From assembly GCA_038211695.1 (NCBI GenBank), contig JBBQVH010000010.1:2825-66824 (forward strand): 64,000 bases of DNA, in the 5' to 3' direction. Made by a program: the position numbers and the translations under genes. A model generated the notes under the pieces. It had not been told where the DNA came from. It searched no databases and worked only from the letters and a program-made list of their open reading frames with translations. Of this stretch, positions 13,312 through 35,186 are shown in pieces. The DNA is from Blastocatellia bacterium (GTDB taxonomy: Bacteria > Acidobacteriota > Blastocatellia > RBC074). Within the stretch, counting starts at the first letter, position 1. Each line of letters starts with the position of its first letter.

Positions 13312-14817
13312 TTAATCTTCAAGCGCTTCGCTGGGAACGATGCCACGTTTGCGAGCCTGCGCGCGCCAAAGGAAGTAGACCGGCAAGCCGGTCGCGACAA
13401 TCGCCAATCCCGGCAGCGTCGTTTTCGGCTGATAGATGAAGAGCACCAGCAGAATGACCGTCGCGCCAATGATGTATAGCGCAGGCACTACTGGATAGCC
13501 GAAGGCTTTGTAAGGCCGCGGCACGTCCGGCTGTTTGCGGCGCAGCAGGTAAATTCCGGCAATCGTCAGAATGTAGAAGATCAGCGCCGCTGAAATCACA
13601 TAGGTCAGCAAATCGCCGTACAGATTGCCGTAGCTGACCGAGCCGTCCGCTGCCGTTTTTATCGTGCGCGGCAAAACATAAAATGCCGCCAGCAATCCCT
13701 GAATCAACAGTCCCCAAGCCGGGACTGAATGCCGGTTAAATTCGCTCGCCTTTTTGAAAAACAGCCCATCGTGCGACATCGCGTAATAAGCGCGCGCGCC
13801 GGCCAAGATCAATCCGTTGTTACAGCCAAAGGTTGAAATCAGCATCACCGCCGCCATCAGCGTTGCACCAATGCCGGGGAAGATCACGTTGGCCGTGGCC
13901 GCCGCCACGCGATCACTGGGTACTTGCTGAATCGTTTCCAGCGGAAGCGTCACCAGATAAGCGATGTTGGCCAGCAGATAAAGCGTAATTACCAGTCCCG
14001 TGCCCAACGCCAGCGAAAGCGGAATGTTGCGCTTCGGGTCTTTCACTTCGCCCGCGGTGAAGGTGATGTTGTTCCAGGCATCGGCGGAAAACAGCGAATT
14101 GGTCTGCGCCACGCAAAGTCCGACGAACAATCCGAATGTGGTTGCCGCAGTCAACCCCTGCCCAACATCTTGCAAGGTGCCTCGAACCGCCCAGAAGTTG
14201 CCGAAGTTCGCGTGAATTGCGCCGGAGTTCCAGCCAACCAGAATGCCCAGCACAATCAGCGCGATCAATCCGCCGGTTTTGGCCACGGTGAAAACGTTCT
14301 GGACCAGCTTGCCCAGCTTCAGTCCGCGCGTGTTCATCCACGTCAGCAAAGCGATCATCAGCACGCCGACAAGCTGCGCCGTCGAAAGCGAAACTCCATA
14401 GCTTGAACCCAGGTGAATCGGCTTAATGAGGTAATTCGTTTCGGAGATCGTCGGCCACAGCACGCCCAGAAAACGGGCAAAGCCAACGGCCACCGCCGCA
14501 ATCGTTCCCGTCTGAATGACCAGAAACAGCGTCCAGCCGTAAAGGAATCCCCACAACGGAGAAAACGCTTCGCGCAGGTAGACGTATTGTCCGCCTGCTT
14601 TTGGCATCATCGCCGCCAGTTCGCCATAACTGAGCGCGCCAACCAGCGTCAGAAAGCCCGTAATCAACCACACCACCAGCAGCCAGCCGGGCGAACCGAC
14701 CTGCCGTGCAATGTCCGCTGAAACGATAAAGATGCCCGACCCGATCATCGAACCTGCCACGATCATCGTTGAATCGAGCAGACCCAGACCACGAACGAAC
14801 TTTTCTTCTTGTGCCAT
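13312..14817 (-). CDS. APC superfamily amino-acid permease (second paralogue)
   Basis: MIVAGSMIGSGIFIVSADI...GGQYVYLREAF; 12 TM. Confidence 0.8.
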   Translation of the reverse strand: MAQEEKFVRGLGLLDSTMIVAGSMIGSGIFIVSADIARQVGSPGWLLVVWLITGFLTLVGALSYGELAAMMPKAGGQYVYLREAFSPLWGFLYGWTLFLVIQTGTIAAVAVGFARFLGVLWPTISETNYLIKPIHLGSSYGVSLSTAQLVGVLMIALLTWMNTRGLKLGKLVQNVFTVAKTGGLIALIVLGILVGWNSGAIHANFGNFWAVRGTLQDVGQGLTAATTFGLFVGLCVAQTNSLFSADAWNNITFTAGEVKDPKRNIPLSLALGTGLVITLYLLANIAYLVTLPLETIQQVPSDRVAAATANVIFPGIGATLMAAVMLISTFGCNNGLILAGARAYYAMSHDGLFFKKASEFNRHSVPAWGLLIQGLLAAFYVLPRTIKTAADGSVSYGNLYGDLLTYVISAALIFYILTIAGIYLLRRKQPDVPRPYKAFGYPVVPALYIIGATVILLVLFIYQPKTTLPGLAIVATGLPVYFLWRAQARKRGIVPSEALED

Positions 14818-14985
14818 AGGTGAATTTTGGAGTTTCGATTTTTGCTTGTGGATGTGACCAACTTATGGATCGAGATGAAAGCGAAACGTAAGACGTTCGG
14901 TAATTCAAAATCCAAAACCCAAAATTCAGGTTGGAGAAAGAAAAGGGCGATCCGAATTACGAATCGCCCTTGGAAGACTGCCACA

Positions 14986-16422
14986 TTACTTGCCCGGCGA
15001 AGCTGCCGGTTGCGCTGGCGGTGATGCGGGTTGCCCCTGCTGCGGCTGCGCCTGTTGCTGCACCTGCGCCGGTGGTGACTTCTTGTTGAATAAACTCTCG
15101 CCCAGATTCAAAAAGTCATTGCCGAAAACGAAGATGATCAATGCGCCAACGATGGCCAACCCCACGCTTTGAATCCGTTCGCGCAGCTTCATCGTCATCG
15201 TCAGCCCGACCAGACCCATGATCGCTTCGACAAACAGCATCAGAATCATTCCGCCGTCCAGCACTGGAATCGGCAGCAGATTGAAGATGCCCAGGTTCAG
15301 GCTCAGAAAGCCCATCCAGCCGATCATGCTGGCCCATCCGCCAGCGTTATAAGTTTCCACCGTCGCTTTGGCCATTCCCACCGGCCCTTGCAGCGAAGTG
15401 CGCACCGAACGGCTGCCATTGAAAATCTGCCGGAAGCCGATTGCCGTTCCACGCAGAATGCGCCAGTTGAAGTTCCACCCGTAGCTAAATGCCGAAGCCA
15501 GCGAAGACGTCTTAATCAGCACTGAAGTGTCGGGAGTAAAACCCAGCTTGTATTCGCCATCCAGGATCGTCGGGGTCGCCAGCAATTCCTGATTGCTGCC
15601 GTTGCGGTCAACCTTCAGCGCCAACGCCTGGCCATTGCCCGTTTGCAGCACTTCCTTGAACTGATGCCATGAGTTGATGGACTGGCCATTGATGGCAGTG
15701 ATCTTGTCACCGGCTTTCAGACCGGCTGTGTCCGCAGGCATTTTCGACATTACGCCAACCACGCGAATATTCGTCAGCGGGATATAAGATTCAATGCCCG
15801 ATTCGCCGAACTTCTCTTTCTGTACCTGACGGGCATGGGGTTTAAGCGTGACATCCATTTGCTGCCCATTGCGCTCAATTCGCAGCGGGATGGTTTCTTG
15901 CGGCCGCAGGAAAATTTCAAAGCGCAGGTCTTCCCAGCTTGGGTTCTCGTGGCCTTCATACGCCAGAATACGGTCGCCCGGACGCAGCCCAGCTTCTTCC
16001 GCGGCGGAGGCAGGCGCGATGCGGCCAATGACCGGCTGTTGCGCGCGATCCGCCATGTCCCTGTAGCCAATCAAAATACTGATCGTCGGGATTAACAGCG
16101 CCGTCGCAATGTTAAACGCCGGCCCGGCCAGCGCCACCAAAAAGCGTTTCCACTTCGGATGCGAATTGAATTCGTCCGCTGGCGCATCGCTCTTCCCCTG
16201 CAACATCTCTAGATTTTCACCGCGAAACCGCACATAACCGCCCAGCGGCACCGCGCTGAACCGGTAATCGGTTTCGCCGTATTTGAAGCCGAACAACCGT
16301 GGGCCAAACCCGACGGAAAAAACTTCAACGCCGATGCCCAGCATTTTGGCAACAATGAAGTGGCCAAATTCGTGAATGACCACCATCGTGCAAAGCACAA
16401 CGATAAAAGCAACTATACCCAC
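14986..16422 (-). CDS. rseP: RIP metalloprotease RseP (M50 site-2 protease with PDZ domains) plus a Q/P-rich C-terminal tail
   Basis: HEFGHF zinc motif near the N-terminus, two PDZ-like segments, and a C-terminal LDG motif region. GTG start 7 nt after AAGGAG. The tail NKKSPPAQVQQQAQPQQGQPASPPAQPAASPGK is atypical. Confidence 0.8.
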   Translation of the reverse strand: MGIVAFIVVLCTMVVIHEFGHFIVAKMLGIGVEVFSVGFGPRLFGFKYGETDYRFSAVPLGGYVRFRGENLEMLQGKSDAPADEFNSHPKWKRFLVALAGPAFNIATALLIPTISILIGYRDMADRAQQPVIGRIAPASAAEEAGLRPGDRILAYEGHENPSWEDLRFEIFLRPQETIPLRIERNGQQMDVTLKPHARQVQKEKFGESGIESYIPLTNIRVVGVMSKMPADTAGLKAGDKITAINGQSINSWHQFKEVLQTGNGQALALKVDRNGSNQELLATPTILDGEYKLGFTPDTSVLIKTSSLASAFSYGWNFNWRILRGTAIGFRQIFNGSRSVRTSLQGPVGMAKATVETYNAGGWASMIGWMGFLSLNLGIFNLLPIPVLDGGMILMLFVEAIMGLVGLTMTMKLRERIQSVGLAIVGALIIFVFGNDFLNLGESLFNKKSPPAQVQQQAQPQQGQPASPPAQPAASPGK

Positions 16423-16701
16423 CTTGCTACTCCTTATTCTCAGGCCGCAGTGATTTTGCTTTTCCCCGGCCCGTGAAACGCGGCTCATTTGGCCGCAAAC
16501 AACATTTTTTCAATAGGCGCGGAGTGTATTTCAGGCCAGATGGCAGTGTCAAAGTAGCGTCTCTAACCCACTGACAAGCTTTGGTGATGGCCGTCTTGTT
16601 TGGCAGTAACGCTGCTGAAACGTTAGACTGTGGCTTCTGGTTTAGGCAGTTTGCTCAAACCTCGAATGTTTTCGAACACTTCAGAACCCAAAGTAAAAAT
16701 T

Positions 16702-24644: not shown

Positions 24645-26135
24645 ATGGAAGTTAAAGCGGATGCAAGGAAGTTTTACGAGATCGAATGCGACGCGCTGGT
24701 CGTTGGCGTGTACGAAGGCGAAGGCCACAAAGAAGGCACCTTGGCCGAACTGGATAAGCGCATTGGTGGCGTGCTGGCTTCGCTGGTGGAAAATGGAGAG
24801 TTCACCGGCAAGGCGGGCGAATCGGCTTACATTCACAACACCGGCGAGATGAAGGCGCGACGGCTGCTGCTGCTGGGCGCGGGCAAACAGGCCGATTTCA
24901 CCGCCGACAATGTCCGCCGGATGGCAGGCACGGCAACGCGCACATTGCGTAGCAAGAAGCTGCGCAGCTTCGCTTTCCTGCGCCGTTCCCAATTGGCTAT
25001 CGGCGAAAGTGCGCAGGCCGCCACCGAAGGCGCGCTGCTATCACTGTTCGACCCTGACAAATATCACACCAGCGACAAGACAGAGAATCATCTGGAAGCC
25101 ATGATCTTGGCAGCATCAAGTCTGGACGGGGAGGGTGACATCGAAGAGTTAAAGCGTGGCGTTGAACGTGGCCGCATTATCGCCGAAGCCACGAACTTCG
25201 GGCGCGAGATTGTTAATGAACCGTCCAACGTCATGACGCCAACCGCCCTGGCACAGAAGGCCGAAGAGCTGGCCAAGGATTACGGACTGGAACTGGACGT
25301 GCTGGACGAAGCGCAAATGAAAGAGCTTGGGATGGGTTCGCTGCTCGGCGTGGCGCAAGGTTCCGCGGAACCGGCCAAGATGATCGTGCTGCGCTACACG
25401 CCGAAAGTTGATTCCGACGAAACCATCGCCATCGTCGGCAAAGGCGTGACCTTCGACACAGGCGGCATTTCGATCAAACCCGCCGACGGGATGGAGAAAA
25501 TGAAGTACGACATGGCGGGCGGCGCAACGACCCTTTCCGCCATGCGCGCCATCGCGCAGCTCAAGCCCACGGTCAACGTCCTGGGTATCGTCCCAGCGGT
25601 CGAAAACATGCCCGGCGGACGTGCGCAACGCCCGGGCGATGTAGTTCGCGCGATGACCGGCAAAACCATCGAAGTCATCAACACCGACGCCGAAGGCCGG
25701 TTGATTCTGGCCGACGCAGTGGCCTATGCACGACAGCTTGGCGCGACCAAAATCGTTGATCTGGCAACGCTGACCGGCGCGGTTTCGATTGCGTTGGGTG
25801 ACGTATACGTCGCGATTCTGGGCAACAATCAGGATTGGATAAACGAAGTGATCGCGGCGGGCAAAAAGTCCGGCGAGAAGCTTTGGCAACTGCCTTTGGA
25901 CAAAGAGTACCGCGAACAAATCAAGAGCGAGATCGCCGACATCAAAAACGTCGGCGGGCGCAAAGCCGGCACCATCACCGGCGCGTACTTCATCCGCGAA
26001 TTCGTCGAAGACACACCGTGGGCGCATCTGGACATTGCAGGTACAGCCTGGAACGACAGCAACAAACCGTATTTGTCGGTCGGCCCCACGGGCGTTTGCG
26101 TGCGGACGCTGGTCAATCTGGTGTGTCGTGACTGA
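24645..26135 (+). CDS. pepA: Leucyl aminopeptidase (M17)
   Basis: NTDAEGRLILADA signature, VGKGVTFDTGGISIKP, MKYDMAGGA. Confidence 0.9.
   Translation: MEVKADARKFYEIECDALVVGVYEGEGHKEGTLAELDKRIGGVLASLVENGEFTGKAGESAYIHNTGEMKARRLLLLGAGKQADFTADNVRRMAGTATRTLRSKKLRSFAFLRRSQLAIGESAQAATEGALLSLFDPDKYHTSDKTENHLEAMILAASSLDGEGDIEELKRGVERGRIIAEATNFGREIVNEPSNVMTPTALAQKAEELAKDYGLELDVLDEAQMKELGMGSLLGVAQGSAEPAKMIVLRYTPKVDSDETIAIVGKGVTFDTGGISIKPADGMEKMKYDMAGGATTLSAMRAIAQLKPTVNVLGIVPAVENMPGGRAQRPGDVVRAMTGKTIEVINTDAEGRLILADAVAYARQLGATKIVDLATLTGAVSIALGDVYVAILGNNQDWINEVIAAGKKSGEKLWQLPLDKEYREQIKSEIADIKNVGGRKAGTITGAYFIREFVEDTPWAHLDIAGTAWNDSNKPYLSVGPTGVCVRTLVNLVCRD
26093..26135. repeat. Left copy of an imperfect direct repeat (the pepA 3' end) bounding the island
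   Basis: ggcgtttgcgtgcGGACGCTGGTCAATCTGGTgtgtcgtgactga encodes GVCVRTLVNLVCRD*. A 19-nt identical core recurs at 31056-31074. Confidence 0.7.
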
Positions 26136-26162
26136 GGAAGAGAAGGCAAATTCGGTAGAGCG

Positions 26163-26648
26163 ATGTCGGTAATGGACATTTACAGCAAGGAAAAAAGAAG
26201 TCAGATAATGTCCGCAGTCCGTTCTTCGGGAACGAAGCCGGAACTCATCGTCAGAAAGGCATTACATTCTCTAGGATTCCGCTTTCGCCTTCATAGCAAG
26301 GCGCTTCCCGGGAAACCGAATATTGTTCTGCCTAAACATAAAGCAGTTGTTTTCGTCCATGGATGTTTTTGGCATCACCACAAGGGATGTGGGAAGTCCA
26401 AGCTTCCCACATCGAATGCCGAATTTTGGCAGACGAAAATATTCGAGAATGTTCGGCGAGATAAGAAAACCATATCGCATCTCAGGAGACTTGGCTGGCG
26501 GGTTTTAATTGTTTGGGAATGTGAAACCAAAGGCGGCATATTCATCAAAAAGCTATACCGTTTCTTCAAGCTGACATGCCCATCGCCCGCTGCAATGTCA
26601 GTCATCAGCCGGGGAAATAAGAGGTCACGCAATGTCGCAACAAGCTAG
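26163..26648 (+). CDS. vsr: Very-short-patch repair endonuclease Vsr
   Basis: RSQIMSAVRSSGTKPELIVRKALHSLGFRFRLH...GKPNIVLPKHKAVVFVHGCFWHHH...LGWRVLIVWECE lines up with canonical Vsr along its whole length. Confidence 0.85.
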   Translation: MSVMDIYSKEKRSQIMSAVRSSGTKPELIVRKALHSLGFRFRLHSKALPGKPNIVLPKHKAVVFVHGCFWHHHKGCGKSKLPTSNAEFWQTKIFENVRRDKKTISHLRRLGWRVLIVWECETKGGIFIKKLYRFFKLTCPSPAAMSVISRGNKRSRNVATS

Positions 26649-28812
26649 GCAATCAAGCGAATCGGAGAAAATCCCGTTCCGCATGCACCCGAGAGTATTC
26701 GAGTCACTGGGTGCGGACTTAGTTACAAGTGACGCTGTGGCAATCATTGAGTTGGTGAAGAACTCTTACGATGCCCACGCAACGAGAGTGGACGTGCGCT
26801 TGAAGAAGAGTACCGAAGATAACGAGTTAATATTGGAGATTGAAGATAACGGCTCCGGTATGAACCATGAGGTAATTGAAAATGCCTGGGCAGTCGTCGC
26901 CACTCCCTACCGCGTCAAGCAAACCAACAGCAAGCAAGGACGAAAAGGGCGGAGAGCTTCCGGCGAAAAAGGGCTTGGAAGGCTATCCGCAGCGCGTTTG
27001 GGCAACAACTTGGAGATGTTTACCAAGCCCGCGAATGAAGATTGTTGGCAAGTAAAAGTTGATTGGGGCATTCTGGCGGCCTCGGATGATTTGAGTTCCT
27101 GCGAAATCCAACTTCAAAAATACAATGGCAATCCTCTTGCCGGGCGCACCGGCACGCTGATACGAATTTGTGAGTTAAAGAGTAATTGGGATGACGAAAA
27201 GATCGCTGAGCTTAAGGATTTGCTATCTAGATTGATTCCCCCCTTTGCTCGGGTTGAAGACTTTAAGATTTGGCTGACTCTTCCAGGTGAAAAAGAGGCA
27301 GAGTCTGAAGAAATTGAACCAGCAAAGTTTCTTTCCAAGCCGCCATACCTGCTGAAAGGGAGTGTAGATAAGTCAGGCAGAGCCAACTGCACCTACACTT
27401 ATGCTCCGCTACAAGGAGCGAGTCGCACGGTTGAGATTGTCCGTGAATTATGGGCTAGCAATTTCGTTGCGGCGGACAACGATCAAGACGACGGTCAAGA
27501 AGTGAACCAAGTGCCCGAGTGTGGGCCATTCAAGTTTGAGATAAGAGTTTGGGATCTCGATAAAGACGCTGAGACGTTTAAGGAAATCTCGCAAGAATTC
27601 AATTTGAATCTTGCGATGCTACGCAGAACCATAAAAAACTATCAGGGACTGTCACTCTATCGCGATGAAATACTGGTTTTGCCAAAATCGGAATCGGCAA
27701 GGGACTGGTTGGGACTTGATCTGCGCCGTGTGAGCAAAACCGGCAAGAGGGTAGGCACCAGTCAACTCATTGGCTACTTGGCAGCTACAGCCGAAAACAA
27801 TCCGAGTCTCAAAGATACAAGTGATCGCGAAAGGCTGGTTGATAATCAGGCCGCTAGGGATTTCAAAAAGCTCTTGTGGGAAATTGCCGGGCTATTGGAG
27901 AACGAGAGAGAGAAGGATCGGCTGGAAATTCGTAAACAGCGATCTTTGAAGGATTTGTTTACTGCACTTTCAACCAAGCCTCTCATTGAGCGGATGTCGG
28001 CTGCCGTGGCACAGGGAGTCGAAGCTAAAAAACTGCTCCCGCTGGTGGAAGAACATGGTGTTGAGGTTGAAAAAGCTATCGGTGAAATTGAGCAAACACT
28101 TATTTATTACAATCAACTCGCCAATCTTGGTGCTTTAGCAGCGGTGTTAGTGCATGAGGTCGGAAATAGGGTAGGCATTATAGGACGATTAACGCGGCGG
28201 ATTCGTAAGCTCATTGAAAGGAAAGATGCTTCCGCTTTGACAGTCGAAGAAGATTTGGGGCGTGCTGAACAGAGCGAGCGTGCCCTTAATCGGTTAGTTG
28301 ACCATCTCGCTCCCCTTGCAAGCCGCACGTTTCGTACCCGGCGACGTGACTCCAACCTCGAAGAGACAATTCTGAATTGCGTGGGAATGCGTGAAGAAGA
28401 GATCAAAGCTAAAAAAATCACCGTCGAGTATAAATCCGATTTGCCTTATGTTGTGGCGATTGACCCGGGCGAGCTTGACGGTATCATCCTCAACTTGCTC
28501 GACAATGCTATTCATTGGCTTTCAACTGTCAAAGATCGCCCGCGCCGCATAGAGTTTCGAGCCTTGCCAAGTAACAAAACATTGCGGGTTAAGATTGAGG
28601 TGCATGACTCTGGCCCTGGCGTAGATAAAGATGATGGAGAACGGATTTTTTTACCAGGAGTCTCCCGTAAGACAGGGGGGCTTGGCATGGGGCTTTTCGT
28701 TGTTGGAGAACTGGTAGCACAGCACAATGGAGCGTTTCATTTGATTACCACGCCGGCACTAGGTGGGGCAAGCTTTGGCTTCGATCTGCCACTTTCCGAG
28801 AGGGCAAAATGA
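26632..28812 (+). CDS. Fusion protein: N-terminal MutL/MORC/HSP90-type GHKL ATPase (HATPase_c_3-like), a central unknown region, and a C-terminal histidine-kinase core (H-box plus HATPase_c)
   Basis: N-terminus: AIIELVKNSYDAHA (N-box), IEDNGSGM (G1), GEKGLGRLS (G2). C-terminus: VLVHEVGNRVGII (H-box-like), ILNLLDNAIHWL (N), VHDSGPGVDKD (G1), GGLGMGLFVVGELV (G2). It overlaps the vsr stop and the next gene start. Confidence 0.7.
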   Translation: MSQQARQSSESEKIPFRMHPRVFESLGADLVTSDAVAIIELVKNSYDAHATRVDVRLKKSTEDNELILEIEDNGSGMNHEVIENAWAVVATPYRVKQTNSKQGRKGRRASGEKGLGRLSAARLGNNLEMFTKPANEDCWQVKVDWGILAASDDLSSCEIQLQKYNGNPLAGRTGTLIRICELKSNWDDEKIAELKDLLSRLIPPFARVEDFKIWLTLPGEKEAESEEIEPAKFLSKPPYLLKGSVDKSGRANCTYTYAPLQGASRTVEIVRELWASNFVAADNDQDDGQEVNQVPECGPFKFEIRVWDLDKDAETFKEISQEFNLNLAMLRRTIKNYQGLSLYRDEILVLPKSESARDWLGLDLRRVSKTGKRVGTSQLIGYLAATAENNPSLKDTSDRERLVDNQAARDFKKLLWEIAGLLENEREKDRLEIRKQRSLKDLFTALSTKPLIERMSAAVAQGVEAKKLLPLVEEHGVEVEKAIGEIEQTLIYYNQLANLGALAAVLVHEVGNRVGIIGRLTRRIRKLIERKDASALTVEEDLGRAEQSERALNRLVDHLAPLASRTFRTRRRDSNLEETILNCVGMREEEIKAKKITVEYKSDLPYVVAIDPGELDGIILNLLDNAIHWLSTVKDRPRRIEFRALPSNKTLRVKIEVHDSGPGVDKDDGERIFLPGVSRKTGGLGMGLFVVGELVAQHNGAFHLITTPALGGASFGFDLPLSERAK

Positions 28813-29963
28813 GTGAAAAAGGTGATGACAAAGTTTGGGTACTGATTGTTGAGGATACGCGTGATAGAGCAGTTACTCTTCGGCAAGAAATCATTGAAAG
28901 GTTGGGGAATGACGTTGAGATTGTCATCGAAGAAGATCACGAGAAAGCCTCGCAGGTCTTACTTCGCCCGCATCCTTACGATGTTGTGATCCTTGACTTG
29001 TTTCGCGGCAATCCGACAAACGGGGATAAGGCGGGCCAAGTTCTTTGGCAGGAAATATTGAATGTAAAGTTCGTCCCCGTGCTTGTTCATACTGCTGGTG
29101 CTTGTGACCTTGAACCGCCTTTTCCCGAAAAACACCCGATTCTTCGCTGCTTCCCGAAAACTTCCGATAGTGATGTGAAGATAGCTGAACACCTGTTGTC
29201 AATTCGCAAGTACGTTATGGAGTTAAGAGAAGTGCAGCAGGAGATCAATGCTGCATTCAAAAGCGTTCTCCTGGTCACGTCGGCAACCATCTGGAAAGAG
29301 GAAGCTGATGAGGAACAGCGTGCTCAATTGCTTCTACGAAGCGCGCGAAGACGAATGGCGGCGACAATGGATTCTGCCACTCAGGTCAGTCAGGAAAAGC
29401 TTCTGTTTTGGGAGCAGTATATTTACCCGCCTATGGAGCCAAGCTTATTGATGGGAGATTTGCTGCGCGCCAAAGACAAAGACAAGCATGATCCGACAGC
29501 TTACCGGCTTGTCTTGACGCCTTCTTGCGATTTGGCTTCCGGAGTCGGCCGCCGCACTATCTGCGACGTTTTAGTAGCAAAGTGTCAGAGTAGAGAGGCT
29601 TATGTGAAGGCGGTTGGCGTGACGATCGGAGATTCGATGACTGACAAAAATAAGGAGCGACTGGCAAGGTCGTTCAACGATGCGCATTACGGCAGCCATG
29701 TCTTTTTGCCGGAGTACAAGTCTGTCCTTCCAACGATGGCCGCTTGCTTGCGTGACTTGGAATTGATTCCGATCAACGAGATTGCATCACAAGATGAATC
29801 GAATGGAAAGTTCACCAGAGTTGTTTCGATTGATAGTCCCTTCCGAGAACAAATAGCGTGGGCTTATCTTCAAATTGCCGCAAGACCGGGAATGCCCGAA
29901 CGTGATTCGGAGCGATGCATTCAAGATAATTTTGCGCCGTCAGAGCCATCCGTAATCTCATAA
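28809..29963 (+). CDS. Receiver (REC)-like domain protein with an unrecognised C-terminal domain of about 270 aa (candidate effector)
   Basis: N-terminus VLIVEDTRD...YDVVILDLF(Asp)...VPVLVHTAG fits the CheY-like receiver layout. The C-terminal two-thirds has no motif I recognise. ATGA overlap with the upstream kinase-like gene. Confidence 0.6.
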   Translation: MSEKGDDKVWVLIVEDTRDRAVTLRQEIIERLGNDVEIVIEEDHEKASQVLLRPHPYDVVILDLFRGNPTNGDKAGQVLWQEILNVKFVPVLVHTAGACDLEPPFPEKHPILRCFPKTSDSDVKIAEHLLSIRKYVMELREVQQEINAAFKSVLLVTSATIWKEEADEEQRAQLLLRSARRRMAATMDSATQVSQEKLLFWEQYIYPPMEPSLLMGDLLRAKDKDKHDPTAYRLVLTPSCDLASGVGRRTICDVLVAKCQSREAYVKAVGVTIGDSMTDKNKERLARSFNDAHYGSHVFLPEYKSVLPTMAACLRDLELIPINEIASQDESNGKFTRVVSIDSPFREQIAWAYLQIAARPGMPERDSERCIQDNFAPSEPSVIS

Positions 29964-29983
29964 TTTTTGAAGGTGATTAAACG

Positions 29984-31040
29984 ATGATTGCGATTGATTT
30001 CTTTTGCGGGGCTGATGGGCCAACCCGAGGGTTGCTGAACGCCGGAATTGAAGTCCGATTTGGAATTGATTATGACGCAGTATGCCGTGAGACTTACGAG
30101 ACAAACAATCAGCCTGCACACTTCCTTAAAGCGGATGTGAAAACGCTTGAAGTCGCGGATATTCGAAGAGAGATTGGTGAGATTGATTCTGACAATTTGT
30201 TACTCGCCGCGTGCGCTCCATGCCAACCTTTCTCACAACTCAACCGTGGAGGAATCAATGATGATGAGGCGACATTGCTCGGGCGGTTCGGGCGATTTGT
30301 TCAAGACTTGCAACCCCGCTACGTGTTTGCGGAGAACGTTCCGGGCCTCAGCCGTGTTCCCGGCCAGAGCACGCATAAGAGATTCCATCGCATGCTGAAA
30401 AAACTCGAATACGGTGTCTGGGAGGGCGTGCTTGATGCGAAGTCGTATGGTGTCCCGCAAACCCGCCGCCGATTCATCATGATTGCGATTCGCGGAATTG
30501 AGCCGACCGCTCCGCCACACACACACGGGCGGGGAGCGGGTTTACTTCCTTTTGAAACGGTGGGGAATGCAATCAGAGATCAGCGTCACTATCCGCCAAT
30601 CCAAGCCGGAGAAACGCATCCGGCAGTCCCTAATCACAGGGCAGCCATTCTCTCCGCCGTTAACCTCGAGCGAATTCGTCATATCTCCTTGCAATGGAGG
30701 GGAACGAACTGCTTGGCCTCAGCACCTATGGCTGAAATGCTATTCGAACGGGCATACCGGCCACACTGACATCTATGGCCGAATGAAATGGGAAGCACCC
30801 TCGCCGACGCTTACTTGCAAATGCATCAGTCTTTCTAATGGCAGGTATGGTCATCCCGAGCAAGATCGTGCCATTTCATTACGCGAAGCTGCGAAACTGC
30901 AAAGTTTCGATGACGATTATGTCTTCCAGGCCGACGGACTTATGCAAGCGGCAAAACAGATCGGGAATGCCGTACCAGTAAAATTTGCCGAAGCGATTGG
31001 GTTGCATATTCGAAGGCTTGCCGGAGAACTCAGCCATTAG
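29984..31040 (+). pseudogene. dcm: Dcm-type DNA (cytosine-5) methyltransferase, interrupted by a single frameshift near 30680-30690
   Basis: Frame 1 carries motifs I (FCGADG), IV (PCQPFS), VI (ENV) and VIII (QTRRRF), and runs to ...NLERIRHIS. Frame 2 continues SPCNGG...YGRMKWEAPSPT...EAAKLQSFDDDYVF...GNAVPV (motifs IX/X). The ORF track shows two overlapping ORFs, 29984..30769 and 30483..31040. Confidence 0.75.
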
Positions 31041-31042
31041 CC

Positions 31043-31084
31043 AGCGTCTTTGTGTGGACGCTGGTCAATCTGGTCTGCGGCTGA
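31043..31084. repeat. Right copy of the direct repeat, a vestigial pepA 3' end
   Basis: gtctttgtgtGGACGCTGGTCAATCTGGTctgcggctga translates as VFVWTLVNLVCG*, a degenerate copy of the PepA C-terminus, immediately after the dcm stop. Confidence 0.7.
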
Positions 31085-31098
31085 CAGCCATCTTATTT

Positions 31099-31665
31099 TC
31101 ACGGTTCCAAATTCAGCCGCCGATCGTCATACAACCGTATGTGGTCGGCGGCTTGCCATTGGGCCAATTGGACGATCTGGCCAGTGTGATAGCTGAAGTG
31201 CTCAACCACATGAAAAACCGCGTCGAACACCGTTTGAGCGTAACCTTGCGGCACGCATTCACGTTGCATGGGCGCGTCAGATTGTGCGGCTGCCAATTCA
31301 TCCTCCAATCCCGCCAACACGGCATCTACTTCATCCAGCGTTCTCGTCAGCAAGATAATCAACTCGTCTTTGCCAATCCCTTCGCGTGCGGCGAATTCGC
31401 TGGCGCGTTGGCGCGTGTCCGCCGCGCCGCCGATGCCGGCAATGATCCACTGGCGCACGTTGCCCACCAGATGCAGAATCAGATTGCCGATGCTGTTGCT
31501 GGCCTCGTTTGGGTGCCACCAAACTTGTTCGTCGTCTAATTCAGCCAGCGCGGCGCTGATCTTGATGAAATAATCTTCGCGCAATCGGAAGCGCGCCTGC
31601 CGCAGAAAGGCAAGTCCGGCAGGCAGTGGCGCGGCAGGTGGTTCAAGTAAAAATGATCTTTTCAT
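31099..31665 (-). CDS. DinB/YfiT-like (DUF1572) family protein
   Basis: EDYF...L..LDDEQVWWHPNEASNSIGNLILHLVGN...HVVEHFSYHTGQI matches the DinB_2 four-helix-bundle pattern. The N-terminus overlaps the tail of the adjacent transposase ORF, so the start is uncertain. Confidence 0.6.
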   Translation of the reverse strand: MKRSFLLEPPAAPLPAGLAFLRQARFRLREDYFIKISAALAELDDEQVWWHPNEASNSIGNLILHLVGNVRQWIIAGIGGAADTRQRASEFAAREGIGKDELIILLTRTLDEVDAVLAGLEDELAAAQSDAPMQRECVPQGYAQTVFDAVFHVVEHFSYHTGQIVQLAQWQAADHIRLYDDRRLNLEP

Positions 31666-32579
31666 TCGGCAATATCTCCTTCCTTAAACTCTCGAATGCT
31701 GATTCGCAAACCTTCTTTCTGAGCGGGATCGGACGTCTTACCCTGTTACGGGCAAAATGCCAACAGCCAAGAGTGCCTTGCCTCGTAAGTGCGAACAGAG
31801 TTTCAATGCCCCATCTTTCCTTGTATTCCCGGTGCGGCTCCGGCGAGTGTTCCGCCGAAACCGGAATCAGGTACTCGCCCGATCCGAGGTAACAACCGCT
31901 TAGATACAGTTCCATCCCCCACATCTGACGCGCTTCGGGCAGGACTAACATCTGATTGACTCTGGTTGAGGTGAATAATCGCCAGGCGTGAACCAGCTTC
32001 CCGCGACTGTTGCAAACCGGCGTATCCTTCTTCAAGCGCATCCGGAATTTGATCCGATGCTGACGCAGAAAACGGAACCATCGTTTGCCGACAAACTCGC
32101 GATCGCCCAATAAACATTGGATATTTTGCGCGCCGAAGAGGTCAATGAAAATCTCGATCAGCGTCTCTCGCTCGATCGTGTCGGAGTTGCCGGTCTTGGG
32201 CAGCGGCAACCAAACGACTGGAAACCCGATCCCGCGATAAACGATTGAGAGCATCAAAATGTTGACGTCAACGGCACCGACTTTCCAGGCGCGTCCGATC
32301 CAGCGCCAGCGTGTAGGGGCCTTCGTCGCCGAGCAGTTTGACGACAAAGTGGGACAGTTCGGCATAAGGCAATTCGAAGTTGTGGAGGAACCGTTGGAGC
32401 CGTTTGTAGTTCGACTCTTCTTTGGCGTTGCCGGAAAAGGCCGTCGCGAGAATCGAGAGGTTGACGGTCCGGACCGCGTAAAGCGCCAACAGAAAGCGCG
32501 TCACAAATTTGATGCGAGCTTTGTTCCAAGGTAAATTCTCAAGCAACGTTTGCTCAAGTGAGCGAATGTCGAGTGCCAT
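31643..32579 (-). mobile_element. IS4/IS5-superfamily DDE transposase gene, split by a frameshift (ORFs 32268..32579 and 31643..32365). The IS ends were not identified.
   Basis: N-terminal ORF LLENLPWNKARIKFVTRFLLALYAVRTVNLSILATAF...YKRLQRFL; C-terminal ORF with DREF...KERWGIETLFALTRQ (DDE_Tnp_1-like). The two overlap by about 100 nt in different frames. Confidence 0.6.
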
Positions 32580-32798
32580 CGTGCGATCTCCTTTCAGTTT
32601 TGGTGGACCGAAAGTTTAATCGTGCGATGGCCTTAGCCGTCAAGCCCACAAGTCAGACTCATTTTTTGTCCTGTAGAGAAGTGTCAGGCACTACGTTTTC
32701 AACTACTTTCCCAACCACGCCTGGGGCGTACAAAACCGTTGGCGGAAGAAAAAGCACGGTCATCCCAGAAGATGAAAACCCGGATTGCTTTGTTACTA

Positions 32799-33919
32799 AC
32801 TGATGTTACGCAGTGGCCAATTGTGACTTCAACTTGACAAGCTCGGCGTAGGCGGATTTTACCGCCGACAGATAGAGCTTGGATTTCAAGGCGAAGTGGT
32901 TGAGCTTGGTCTTTATTTTGAGCTTCTCCAGTTTGATATAAGCGCACAAACTGGCAAATAGATGATTGCGTTGACTCGTCTCGGTGCGCGTCGGCGACTT
33001 CTCCGGCGAGGCATTCTGCTTGAGCGATTTGTGGTAGACCTCGATGCCCCATCGTTTTTGAAAGAGCTTCGCGATACGGTCAGCGTTGAGCGTCAAGTCG
33101 CTCGTCACCAGGTAGCGCACGCCCACCGAGCCGTCTTCGTTTTTGAAGATCTGCTTGAGCAAGAGGACTGCAAAAGGCACGCCCTCGAGCCAAACCTGGC
33201 GGGTTGTGTCTGCTGGCAAATCGAGTGTACTGACTGCCACGTAGGGACCGCGTTGATTGTCGGTTTCGCCCAAGGCCACCTTGCGGTTCTCCTTGAGCGG
33301 CATGATGAAGTCTTTCTTGAGATCGAGTTTGATGAACTTCATATTGTCGGCGGACGCATACCAGAGGTCATTGAGCACGTATTGGAAGAGCACCTGATTA
33401 TGCACCGCCACGCGCAGCAACATCCGGTAACGCTGGTTTTTGGTGATCGGAGAGCGACGCGCGGGTTTTGCCGGTCTTGGCGTCAACATATTCTTCTGTC
33501 TTCTCGACCGGATCGAAGGCAATCGGCAAAGACACTTCGCCGACGTTATAGAAAGCCGTCAAGAACTCGATTCCTTTGACGTGCCTGCTCAGAGAATGGC
33601 TCCAGTGCCAGCAGATAATGTCATTCTGGTCGGTGTAGAGCTTCTTGCTCAGAGAGTCATCAATGCTGATGACCCCGTCCGGACGTTCGATCTGACGGAC
33701 AAGCGGTTTGCTGACGCGCCACAAATCGGCACTGGTCTTGGGAGCATCGGCAAGCAGGCGGGTCACCTGATCGTGGCTGACCTGACCGTCAAGCATCCGC
33801 GCCATCCCGGTTGCAGTCGCTGGCCCGAAGCTGCTGATCAAGAAGTCAGTGTAGAGGTCGAACAGTTCATCATTCATCTGTCAAGTTTACTCTTGGCAGC
33901 CCGACTGCGTAACATCAGG
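32799..33919 (-). mobile_element. Insertion sequence (about 1.12 kb, IS5/IS4-superfamily) with 15-bp perfect terminal inverted repeats. The transposase is split by a frameshift (33398..33877 and 32806..33522).
   Basis: IR-L aaCTGATGTTACGCAGTgg (32799-32817) against IR-R ccgACTGCGTAACATCAGg (33901-33919). C-terminal ORF contains FQKRWGIEVYHKSLKQ (a DDE transposase signature). The two ORFs overlap out of frame. Confidence 0.7.
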
Positions 33920-34892: not shown

Positions 34893-35186
34893 CTACCCTC
34901 TCCGAAAAGCCGCGACGATGCGGCTGGCCTCGTCCCGTGATGGCGGCGACAGGCGTTTGACCGCCTTTTGATATTGCTCGCGCCGTTGTTGTTTGAGTCC
35001 GGTCGCTTGCGTGATCAGGCGATTGATCCACTCCTGAACCTCGCTAAAGGAAAAGGCGACTTTCCTTTTCCCGATGCGGATGCGGGTGAATTCATCCGTC
35101 CCGGCTTTGCCCGCCAGAATGGTCTTGACCGCCAGCCCGGTCATTTCCGCGACCTGCTGCGCGTTGATCAGTTTTTCCGTCTTCAT
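34893..35186 (-). CDS. Helix-turn-helix DNA-binding protein (excisionase/AlpA/MerR-like)
   Basis: LINAQQVAEMTGLAVKTILAGKAGT...RIGKRKVAFSFSEVQEWI is the typical short HTH excisionase-type layout. Confidence 0.55.
   Translation of the reverse strand: MKTEKLINAQQVAEMTGLAVKTILAGKAGTDEFTRIRIGKRKVAFSFSEVQEWINRLITQATGLKQQRREQYQKAVKRLSPPSRDEASRIVAAFRRG

Follow-up and report, generated by a model that had tools for sequence, protein, structure and literature searches.

We report a split DNA cytosine methyltransferase gene, dcm (29984-31040), that is likely a genuine and evolutionarily recent pseudogene in an apparently mobile operon, in which the Dcm and Vsr half appears to have been lost and the sensor kinase and response regulator genes are full length. 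The operon lies on the forward strand of a 64,000-nucleotide stretch from a Blastocatellia bacterium (GenBank assembly GCA_038211695.1, contig JBBQVH010000010.1, positions 2,825 to 66,824), referred to below as the window, and its genes are arranged in the order vsr, GHKL-histidine kinase, regulator with a receiver (REC) domain and a MazF-like domain, and dcm. All coordinates are window positions unless another contig is named.

A single inserted base divides dcm between two reading frames

A sequence-only reading of this stretch had placed a switch between two reading frames of dcm at about 30680-30690, and this was borne out by our analysis, which located the switch at 30683/30684. The 5' part of the gene (29984-30682) encodes motifs I-VIII and the proximal variable region (residues 1-233), while the 3' part (30684-31040) lies in the +1 frame and encodes the distal variable region together with motifs IX-X (residues 234-351). 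When the intact homolog P0001 was used as a tblastn query, its residues 1-231 aligned to 29984-30682 and its residues 232-349 to 30684-31037, such that exactly one base was skipped. The nucleotide alignment reads CGC CAT ACC CCT in the locus of this relative and CGT CAT A[T]CT CCT in the window, identifying T30684 as the extra base. The resulting one-base insertion (A30683/T30684) and +1 shift are found in the context CGTCATATCTCC, which contains no homopolymer. Removal of T30684 yields a 351-aa protein reading ...ERIRHTPCNGG... across the junction, in agreement with the family consensus ERIRHTPxDGG, and TIGR00675 recognizes this repaired Dcm at 133.7 bits (cutoff 100.65). Used as a database query, the repaired Dcm returned 5,495 homologs, the best of which was P0001 (349 aa, 86-87% identical).

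As it stands in the window, the gene lacks the single uninterrupted reading frame of a C5-methyltransferase. Past the shift, the zero frame continues out of register until it meets a stop at 30769, and the corresponding open reading frame (ORF) at 29984-30769 (261 aa) matches Pfam PF00145 at positions 3-164. The +1 frame is open over 30483-31040 and matches the same family at positions 240-322. One of the homologs retrieved (P0006) is the window's own 261-aa truncated product, encoded on an 88.5-kb NCBI contig. The gene also carries a 6-nt in-frame insertion at 30530-30535, which adds an Arg-Gly to Dcm and is missing from the 11 relatives of alignment A1. No other C5-methylase was found in the 64-kb window by tblastn.

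The frameshift is probably genuine

Several observations indicate that the frameshift in dcm is probably genuine rather than a sequencing error. A Logan contig (L003, run SRR19962015) is 100% identical to the window over 28932-31821 (2890 bp), frameshift included, and a second contig from the same run (L084) is 100% identical over 25666-28958, a span that covers the AAT codon for residue N53 of vsr, which is considered below. By ORF tiling alone, the coding density of the window is 90%, with unbroken ORFs of up to 1223 aa, and the only split genes are dcm and two transposase genes, all of which are located in the mobile region at 29.9-33.9 kb. Since split genes are confined to this region, random indel errors appear to be rare. 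Among 78 related cassettes, the only other frameshifted methylase was found at locus L045, in a CCC run of a long-read metagenome-assembled genome (MAG). We also scanned metagenome contigs of the Joint Genome Institute for the exact shift-site sequence, with one or two bases allowed, and obtained no matches.

Two side observations concern the assemblies themselves. The two Logan contigs abut at 28932-28958, inside the regulator gene, suggesting that the assembly graph branches at this point owing to a variant or a repeat. In addition, frameshifts in long-read MAGs occur in the dcm gene of L045 (9366-9400) and in the kinase genes of L033 (6286-6299) and L040 (6664-7079), and all of these are probably sequencing errors.

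Dcm and Vsr both carry active-site substitutions

All ten C5-methyltransferase motifs had been described as present in dcm. Motifs IV (PCQPFS), VI (ENVPGL), VIII (QTRRRF), and X (GNAVPV) are indeed present, in invariant columns, but motif I proved to be degenerate, reading FCGADG instead of FCGAGG. The responsible substitution, G11D (GAT at 30014-30016), replaces the second glycine of the FxGxG element that binds S-adenosylmethionine (SAM), a residue that is glycine in 117 of 117 homologs. Motif I also contains L13P, at a position occupied by leucine in 97% of homologs. Both residues of FxGxG are strictly conserved parts of the SAM pocket, and a glycine-to-aspartate change at the first of them leaves M.SssI and M.HpaII with very low residual methylase activity (PMC3804486). 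It is this motif I lesion, and not the frameshift alone, that makes Dcm inactivity likely. The expectation that a single-base indel inactivates a single-chain methyltransferase is supported as well, though a frameshift by itself is no proof of inactivity, since natural two-chain enzymes exist.

Evidence from substitution rates points in the same direction. Because the cassette is a recombination mosaic, we limited the dcm rate test to the 5' part of the gene in place of whole-gene tests. Over the 5' two-thirds of dcm, the window and its closest relative (L001) are sisters, and with L085 as the outgroup they showed nearly equal synonymous change (16 versus 15 codons). The non-synonymous codon changes were distributed quite differently, with 10 on the window branch versus 1 on that of L001 (Fisher p=0.03), and the same was true of unique residues (14 versus 2; p=0.004), of which 7 of the 14 in the window fall within residues 11-33. 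Between the window and L001, the pairwise ratio of non-synonymous to synonymous rates (dN/dS) of dcm is 0.07, no different from that of the kinase gene, and the relaxation would therefore be recent compared with the time since the two cassettes diverged.

The first gene of the operon, vsr (26163-26648), encodes a very-short-patch repair endonuclease and is a full-length ORF, with a possible alternative start at 26172, as called in Logan contig L084. Its product matches Pfam PF03852 (1.9e-33) and TIGR00632 (151.9 bits; cutoff 97.85). When aligned to the E. coli Vsr structure 1CW0, the window protein presents an asparagine, N53 (AAT, 26319-26321), opposite Asp51, while H71 and D100, which correspond to His69 and Asp97, are kept; the catalytic triad Asp51/His69/Asp97 (E. 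coli numbering) is consequently incomplete. Asp51 of Vsr binds the catalytic Mg2+ directly and is invariant as a catalytic residue (PMC4081097, PMC2677866). Aspartate occupies this position in 48 of 48 other cassette Vsr proteins, such that the asparagine of the window is unique among 49. The three neighbors of dcm had been regarded as intact, which is correct for the lengths of their ORFs but not for Vsr function, and the substitution (D51N in E. coli numbering) illustrates that an intact ORF is not equal to an intact gene. A rate test of vsr with the L085 outgroup was discarded, as L001 and L085 are sisters in this gene (90% identical) and the window is the outgroup. Judged from these residues, the enzyme that would make 5-methylcytosine (5mC) and the enzyme that would repair its deamination both carry active-site lesions, a pattern that we interpret as a coherent loss of the methylation half of the cassette.

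The kinase and regulator genes are full length

The sensor kinase gene (26632-28812) encodes a protein of 726 aa that consists of a HATPase_c_3 domain (residues 35-164), a middle domain, a DHp segment with a His508-Glu pair, and a HATPase_c domain (residues 611-722). According to Pfam and NCBIfam matches, the N-terminus is a paraMORC-type GHKL ATPase resembling the N-terminus of the BbrUII/HgiDII restriction enzymes, and the C-terminal 240 residues align with the sensor kinases ZraS, AtoS, and NtrB. The motifs ELVKNSYDA, DNGSGM, GEKGLG, HEVGN (residue 508), NLLDNA, DSGPG, and GGLGMG are present, and the H, N, G1, and G2 boxes were all found. The kinase has changed at a rate symmetric with that of its relative, as judged by unique residues (60 versus 53) and by non-synonymous to synonymous changes (N:S; 33:84 versus 28:93). 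At columns with ≥90% conservation, the window kinase has four substitutions found nowhere else (S375G, I385A, R489T, and F559L) and the sister has none, which we take as a weak hint that the kinase may not be pristine. S375G and I385A both fall within the segment RLSTSQ.VGYV (27754-27810), and R489T (28096-28098) is located 19 residues before the phospho-acceptor His508.

The response regulator gene (28809-29963) encodes a receiver domain with the (beta-alpha)5 fold, the acidic pair E15-D16, the phospho-acceptor D63, and the lysine K117, followed by a C-terminal domain (residues ~192-375) with the SH3-like barrel fold of the MazF/CcdB/Kid toxins. By sequence, the C-terminal domain had no match to a toxin in Pfam, NCBIfam, or PADLOC, and a profile search of PDB sequences with this domain returned only noise. 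The conserved TPSCD motif of the regulator was also considered as a PD-(D/E)xK nuclease signature, which was ruled out, as both fold searches gave MazF/CcdB only. All 26 of the invariant residues of the regulator family are found in the window copy, which also has the fewest unique changes among four close relatives.

The sequence-only reading had treated the adjacent GHKL and REC genes as possibly restriction-like, and this did not hold up: they are a histidine-kinase/receiver pair with an output domain of the MazF/CcdB toxin fold. The same fold favors abortive-infection-like action for the effector, which had been raised as one option. The other option, a module in decay, fits the Dcm/Vsr half, but the kinase and regulator retain their full lengths and catalytic residues.

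A C5-methylase accompanies the pair at nearly all related loci

To place the window copy among its relatives, we scanned an alignment of the regulator against one genome per species, which identified 80 loci; the regulator has at least 431 homologs. All 80 loci are from MAGs of uncultured organisms, which belong to Acidobacteriota, Planctomycetota, Chloroflexota, Nitrospirota, Desulfobacterota, Verrucomicrobiota, and other phyla. At each of the 78 (of 80) loci whose contig extends as far as the kinase gene, kinase and regulator lie side by side. In 62 loci a C5-methylase gene directly follows the pair, in 14 it directly precedes it, and in 2 it lies ~3.5 kb upstream, which gives a methylase in 78 of the 79 evaluable loci; one further locus is cut by a contig end. 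A vsr gene is located nearby in 44 of the 80. The sole locus without a methylase within 8 kb is L013 (5762-9128), from a Thermodesulfobacteriota MAG, where the pair is well conserved, vsr is likewise missing, and the flanks contain only purH and an outer-membrane efflux gene. From this distribution, the C5-methylase appears to be a near-obligatory partner of the kinase/regulator pair, and the window would be a rare decayed copy. The suggestion that the activity of the pair is independent of methylation is not supported, given that 78 of 79 related loci keep an adjacent C5-methylase.

The cassette is a mosaic with unrelated flanks

The four genes are tightly packed, with a 17-nt overlap between vsr and the kinase gene, a 4-nt overlap between the kinase and regulator genes, and a 20-nt gap before dcm. 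The GC content of the cassette is 0.47-0.50, compared with 0.55-0.58 for its flanks, and the homologous cassettes of L001, L085, and L087 have flanks unrelated to those of the window. The cassettes of L001 and L085 are found between an aldo-keto reductase gene and a LysR gene, while that of L087 is directly followed by a nucleotidyltransferase/HEPN pair (L087 8087-8915). Because its relatives are located in differing flanks and its GC content is below that of its own flanks, the four-gene cassette appears to be a horizontally mobile operon.

It also appears to be a recombination mosaic. The window and L001 share 85-88% nucleotide identity within the 5' part of dcm but ~75% in the rest, and a maximum chi-square analysis (window 29900-31040 versus L001 10001-11050) placed a breakpoint at ~30622, with 13.6% mismatch to its left and 26.3% to its right. 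The observed chi-square was reached in 0 of 500 permutations. The inserted base follows this breakpoint by about 60 nt, and we speculate that the indel arose at or near a homeologous recombination joint.

PADLOC did not recognize a named defense system in the cassette, its matches being limited to Vsr, the methylase, and, weakly, REase_II at the GHKL N-terminus, and scans of the cassette for promoters and terminators found nothing beyond shuffled controls. Downstream of dcm are two DDE transposase genes on the reverse strand (31643-33877), each consisting of two overlapping ORFs (31643-32365 with 32268-32579, and 32806-33522 with 33398-33877). An AlpA-like regulator is encoded at 34893-35186 and, together with the split transposases, has the appearance of mobile-element debris beside the cassette. 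Among the relatives, the neighborhood of L087 is defense-island-like, and the L001 contig carries a second, unrelated methylase/HNH/Vsr-like module (14529-16499) 3.5 kb downstream of its cassette.

Alternative explanations for the split dcm

The simplest alternative is that the indel is a sequencing or assembly error and the true dcm encodes an intact 351-aa enzyme. The source is indeed a metagenome-assembled contig, a dN/dS of 0.07, as low as that of the functional neighbors, is what a functional gene would show, and the frameshift in cassette L045 is probably just such an error. Nevertheless, we regard an error as improbable, since a k-mer assembly made independently agrees with the window at every one of 2890 bp, the site is no homopolymer, and there are no other split ORFs in ~55 kb of housekeeping sequence, while an indel error cannot yield G11D, L13P, a tenfold non-synonymous excess, and D51N in Vsr. 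If the insertion is real, the two ORFs might instead encode a functional two-subunit methyltransferase. Two-chain C5-methylases occur naturally, as in M.AquI and M.EcoHK31I, and the fragments of enzymes that are normally monomeric can complement one another in vivo (PMC3404938); motifs VIII and IX flank the break in the window, which, like that in M.AquI, falls within the variable region, and the +1 frame is open from 30483 with an ATG at 30567. We find this very unlikely, as 0 of 117 close homologs are split and 77 of 78 cassette methylases are unsplit, the remaining one being the probable sequencing error in L045. The break also cuts through the conserved ERIRH|TPxDGG, the sole upstream ATG (30567) is directly abutted by the purine tract GGTGGGGA with no spaced ribosome-binding site, the invariant glycine of motif I is lost, and the catalytic aspartate is missing from Vsr, an enzyme with no use unless 5mC is made. 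Restriction-modification and methylase genes are sometimes phase variable, and a phase-variable switch or a programmed +1 ribosomal frameshift could in principle set the level of Dcm. We give this the least credence of all, because CGTCATATCTCC contains neither a homopolymer nor a repeat tract, a slippery codon ahead of a stop or rare codon is likewise lacking, the next zero-frame stop is 86 nt downstream, and the arrangement occurs in no relative.

More serious is the possibility that the whole cassette is dead, kinase and regulator included, which would explain why loss of the methylase has been tolerated. The four window-only substitutions in the kinase, with none in the sister, and the broken transposases that litter the neighborhood would both fit, and we consider this outcome doubtful but a good deal more plausible than any of the preceding ones. 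Against it, both ORFs are full length, their catalytic motifs and the 26 invariant regulator residues are present, their amino acid rates and N:S ratios match those seen in relatives, and, among the four close relatives, unique changes are fewest in the regulator of the window. A genuine, recent dcm pseudogene beside full-length kinase and regulator genes is the reading that we favor, although several points count against it. The chief doubt is that the Logan contigs may share reads with the deposited assembly, in which case they exclude an assembler artifact but not a systematic read error. The predicted effect of G11D is drawn from the invariance of the residue, and the published mutants concern the first glycine. 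The rate tests rest on a mosaic cassette with a clean sister relation in the 5' part only, and with the distant outgroup L087 the asymmetry was weaker (9 versus 2; p=0.065). Finally, an intact-looking toxin-type partner beside a dead methylase is unexpected given the near-universal methylase linkage.

A possible role for the cassette and its decayed copy

Based upon domain identities and linkage, intact copies of the cassette could operate as follows. Dcm would mark host DNA with 5mC, and Vsr would repair the T:G mismatches that result from 5mC deamination, thereby limiting the mutational cost of the mark. The paraMORC-type GHKL domain of the kinase would monitor the state of DNA, and upon activation His508 would be phosphorylated and the phosphate passed to Asp63 of the receiver. 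The phosphorylated receiver would then release the MazF/CcdB-like toxin domain, arresting the cell. An intact cassette would accordingly resemble a methylation-guarded abortive-infection or addiction-type module more than a DNA-cutting restriction enzyme, which we propose it is not. In the window, both marking and repair have most likely been lost through the insertion at 30683/30684, G11D, a cluster of further lineage-specific replacements within residues 11-33, and D51N in Vsr. The host might tolerate this because the kinase and regulator have been silently inactivated, because a second trigger beyond unmethylated DNA is required, or because a redundant methylase is encoded outside the window.

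A frameshift in dcm is in itself ordinary gene decay, and its value lies in its context within a large and experimentally untouched class of cassettes. One could view the window as a case in which Dcm and Vsr have both been knocked out naturally and the kinase and regulator are still under purifying selection, such that the methylase, if the pair is active, would be no simple antidote. We hold this stronger view to be unlikely as a whole. If it were true, the kinase/toxin pair could outlive the methylation half and work without it, and unmethylated self DNA would not suffice to trigger the toxin, which would await a further signal such as infection. The window copy is, in any event, a ready-made test case for whether methylation holds the candidate toxin off. 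It also offers a reminder that a C5-methylase may be split and still work.

Comparison with known systems

The systems closest to this cassette are the two-component-like paraMORC pairs described by Bellieny-Rabelo et al. (2021), in which a kinase with HATPase_c_3, DHp, and HATPase_c domains and an adjacent receiver protein are linked to a C5-methylase and Vsr (PMC8011034). The window kinase has the same architecture as the HEF_HK (PF19191) kinases of those pairs, with a DHp His-Glu and no membrane segments, and the present loci likewise have an adjacent receiver gene, tight C5-methylase linkage, and frequent vsr linkage. They differ in that PF19191 matched 0 of 7 kinases and Response_reg_2 (PF19192) 0 of 29 regulators, even at E≤1, the present regulators matching the canonical PF00072 instead. 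A MazF/CcdB-like output domain, as found in the present family, is not mentioned for the published pairs (PMC8011034), and the window copy further differs in having apparently lost Dcm and Vsr function. We have therefore filed the cassette as a variant of this experimentally uncharacterized kind that seems to fall outside the PF19191/PF19192 families.

Other comparisons are more partial. As in classical type II restriction-modification with Vsr (Dcm/Vsr), a C5-methylase gene and vsr are found in one operon, whereas in the window the effector is a toxin-fold receiver protein encoded by a gene of its own. The kinase N-terminus is similar to that of the HgiDII/BbrUII GHKL restriction enzymes (NF050001, 75.9 bits over profile positions 7-185, against a family cutoff of 550), but the C-terminal two-thirds are those of a histidine kinase and not a nuclease. 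Compared with MazF/CcdB/Kid (PemK-superfamily) toxins, the regulator domain has no detectable sequence similarity and is fused to a receiver rather than paired with an antitoxin. Lastly, the window dcm resembles M.AquI and M.EcoHK31I in consisting of two overlapping ORFs divided in the variable region (PMC3404938), but its split is unique to its lineage, the motif I glycine has been lost, and the second chain has no evident start.
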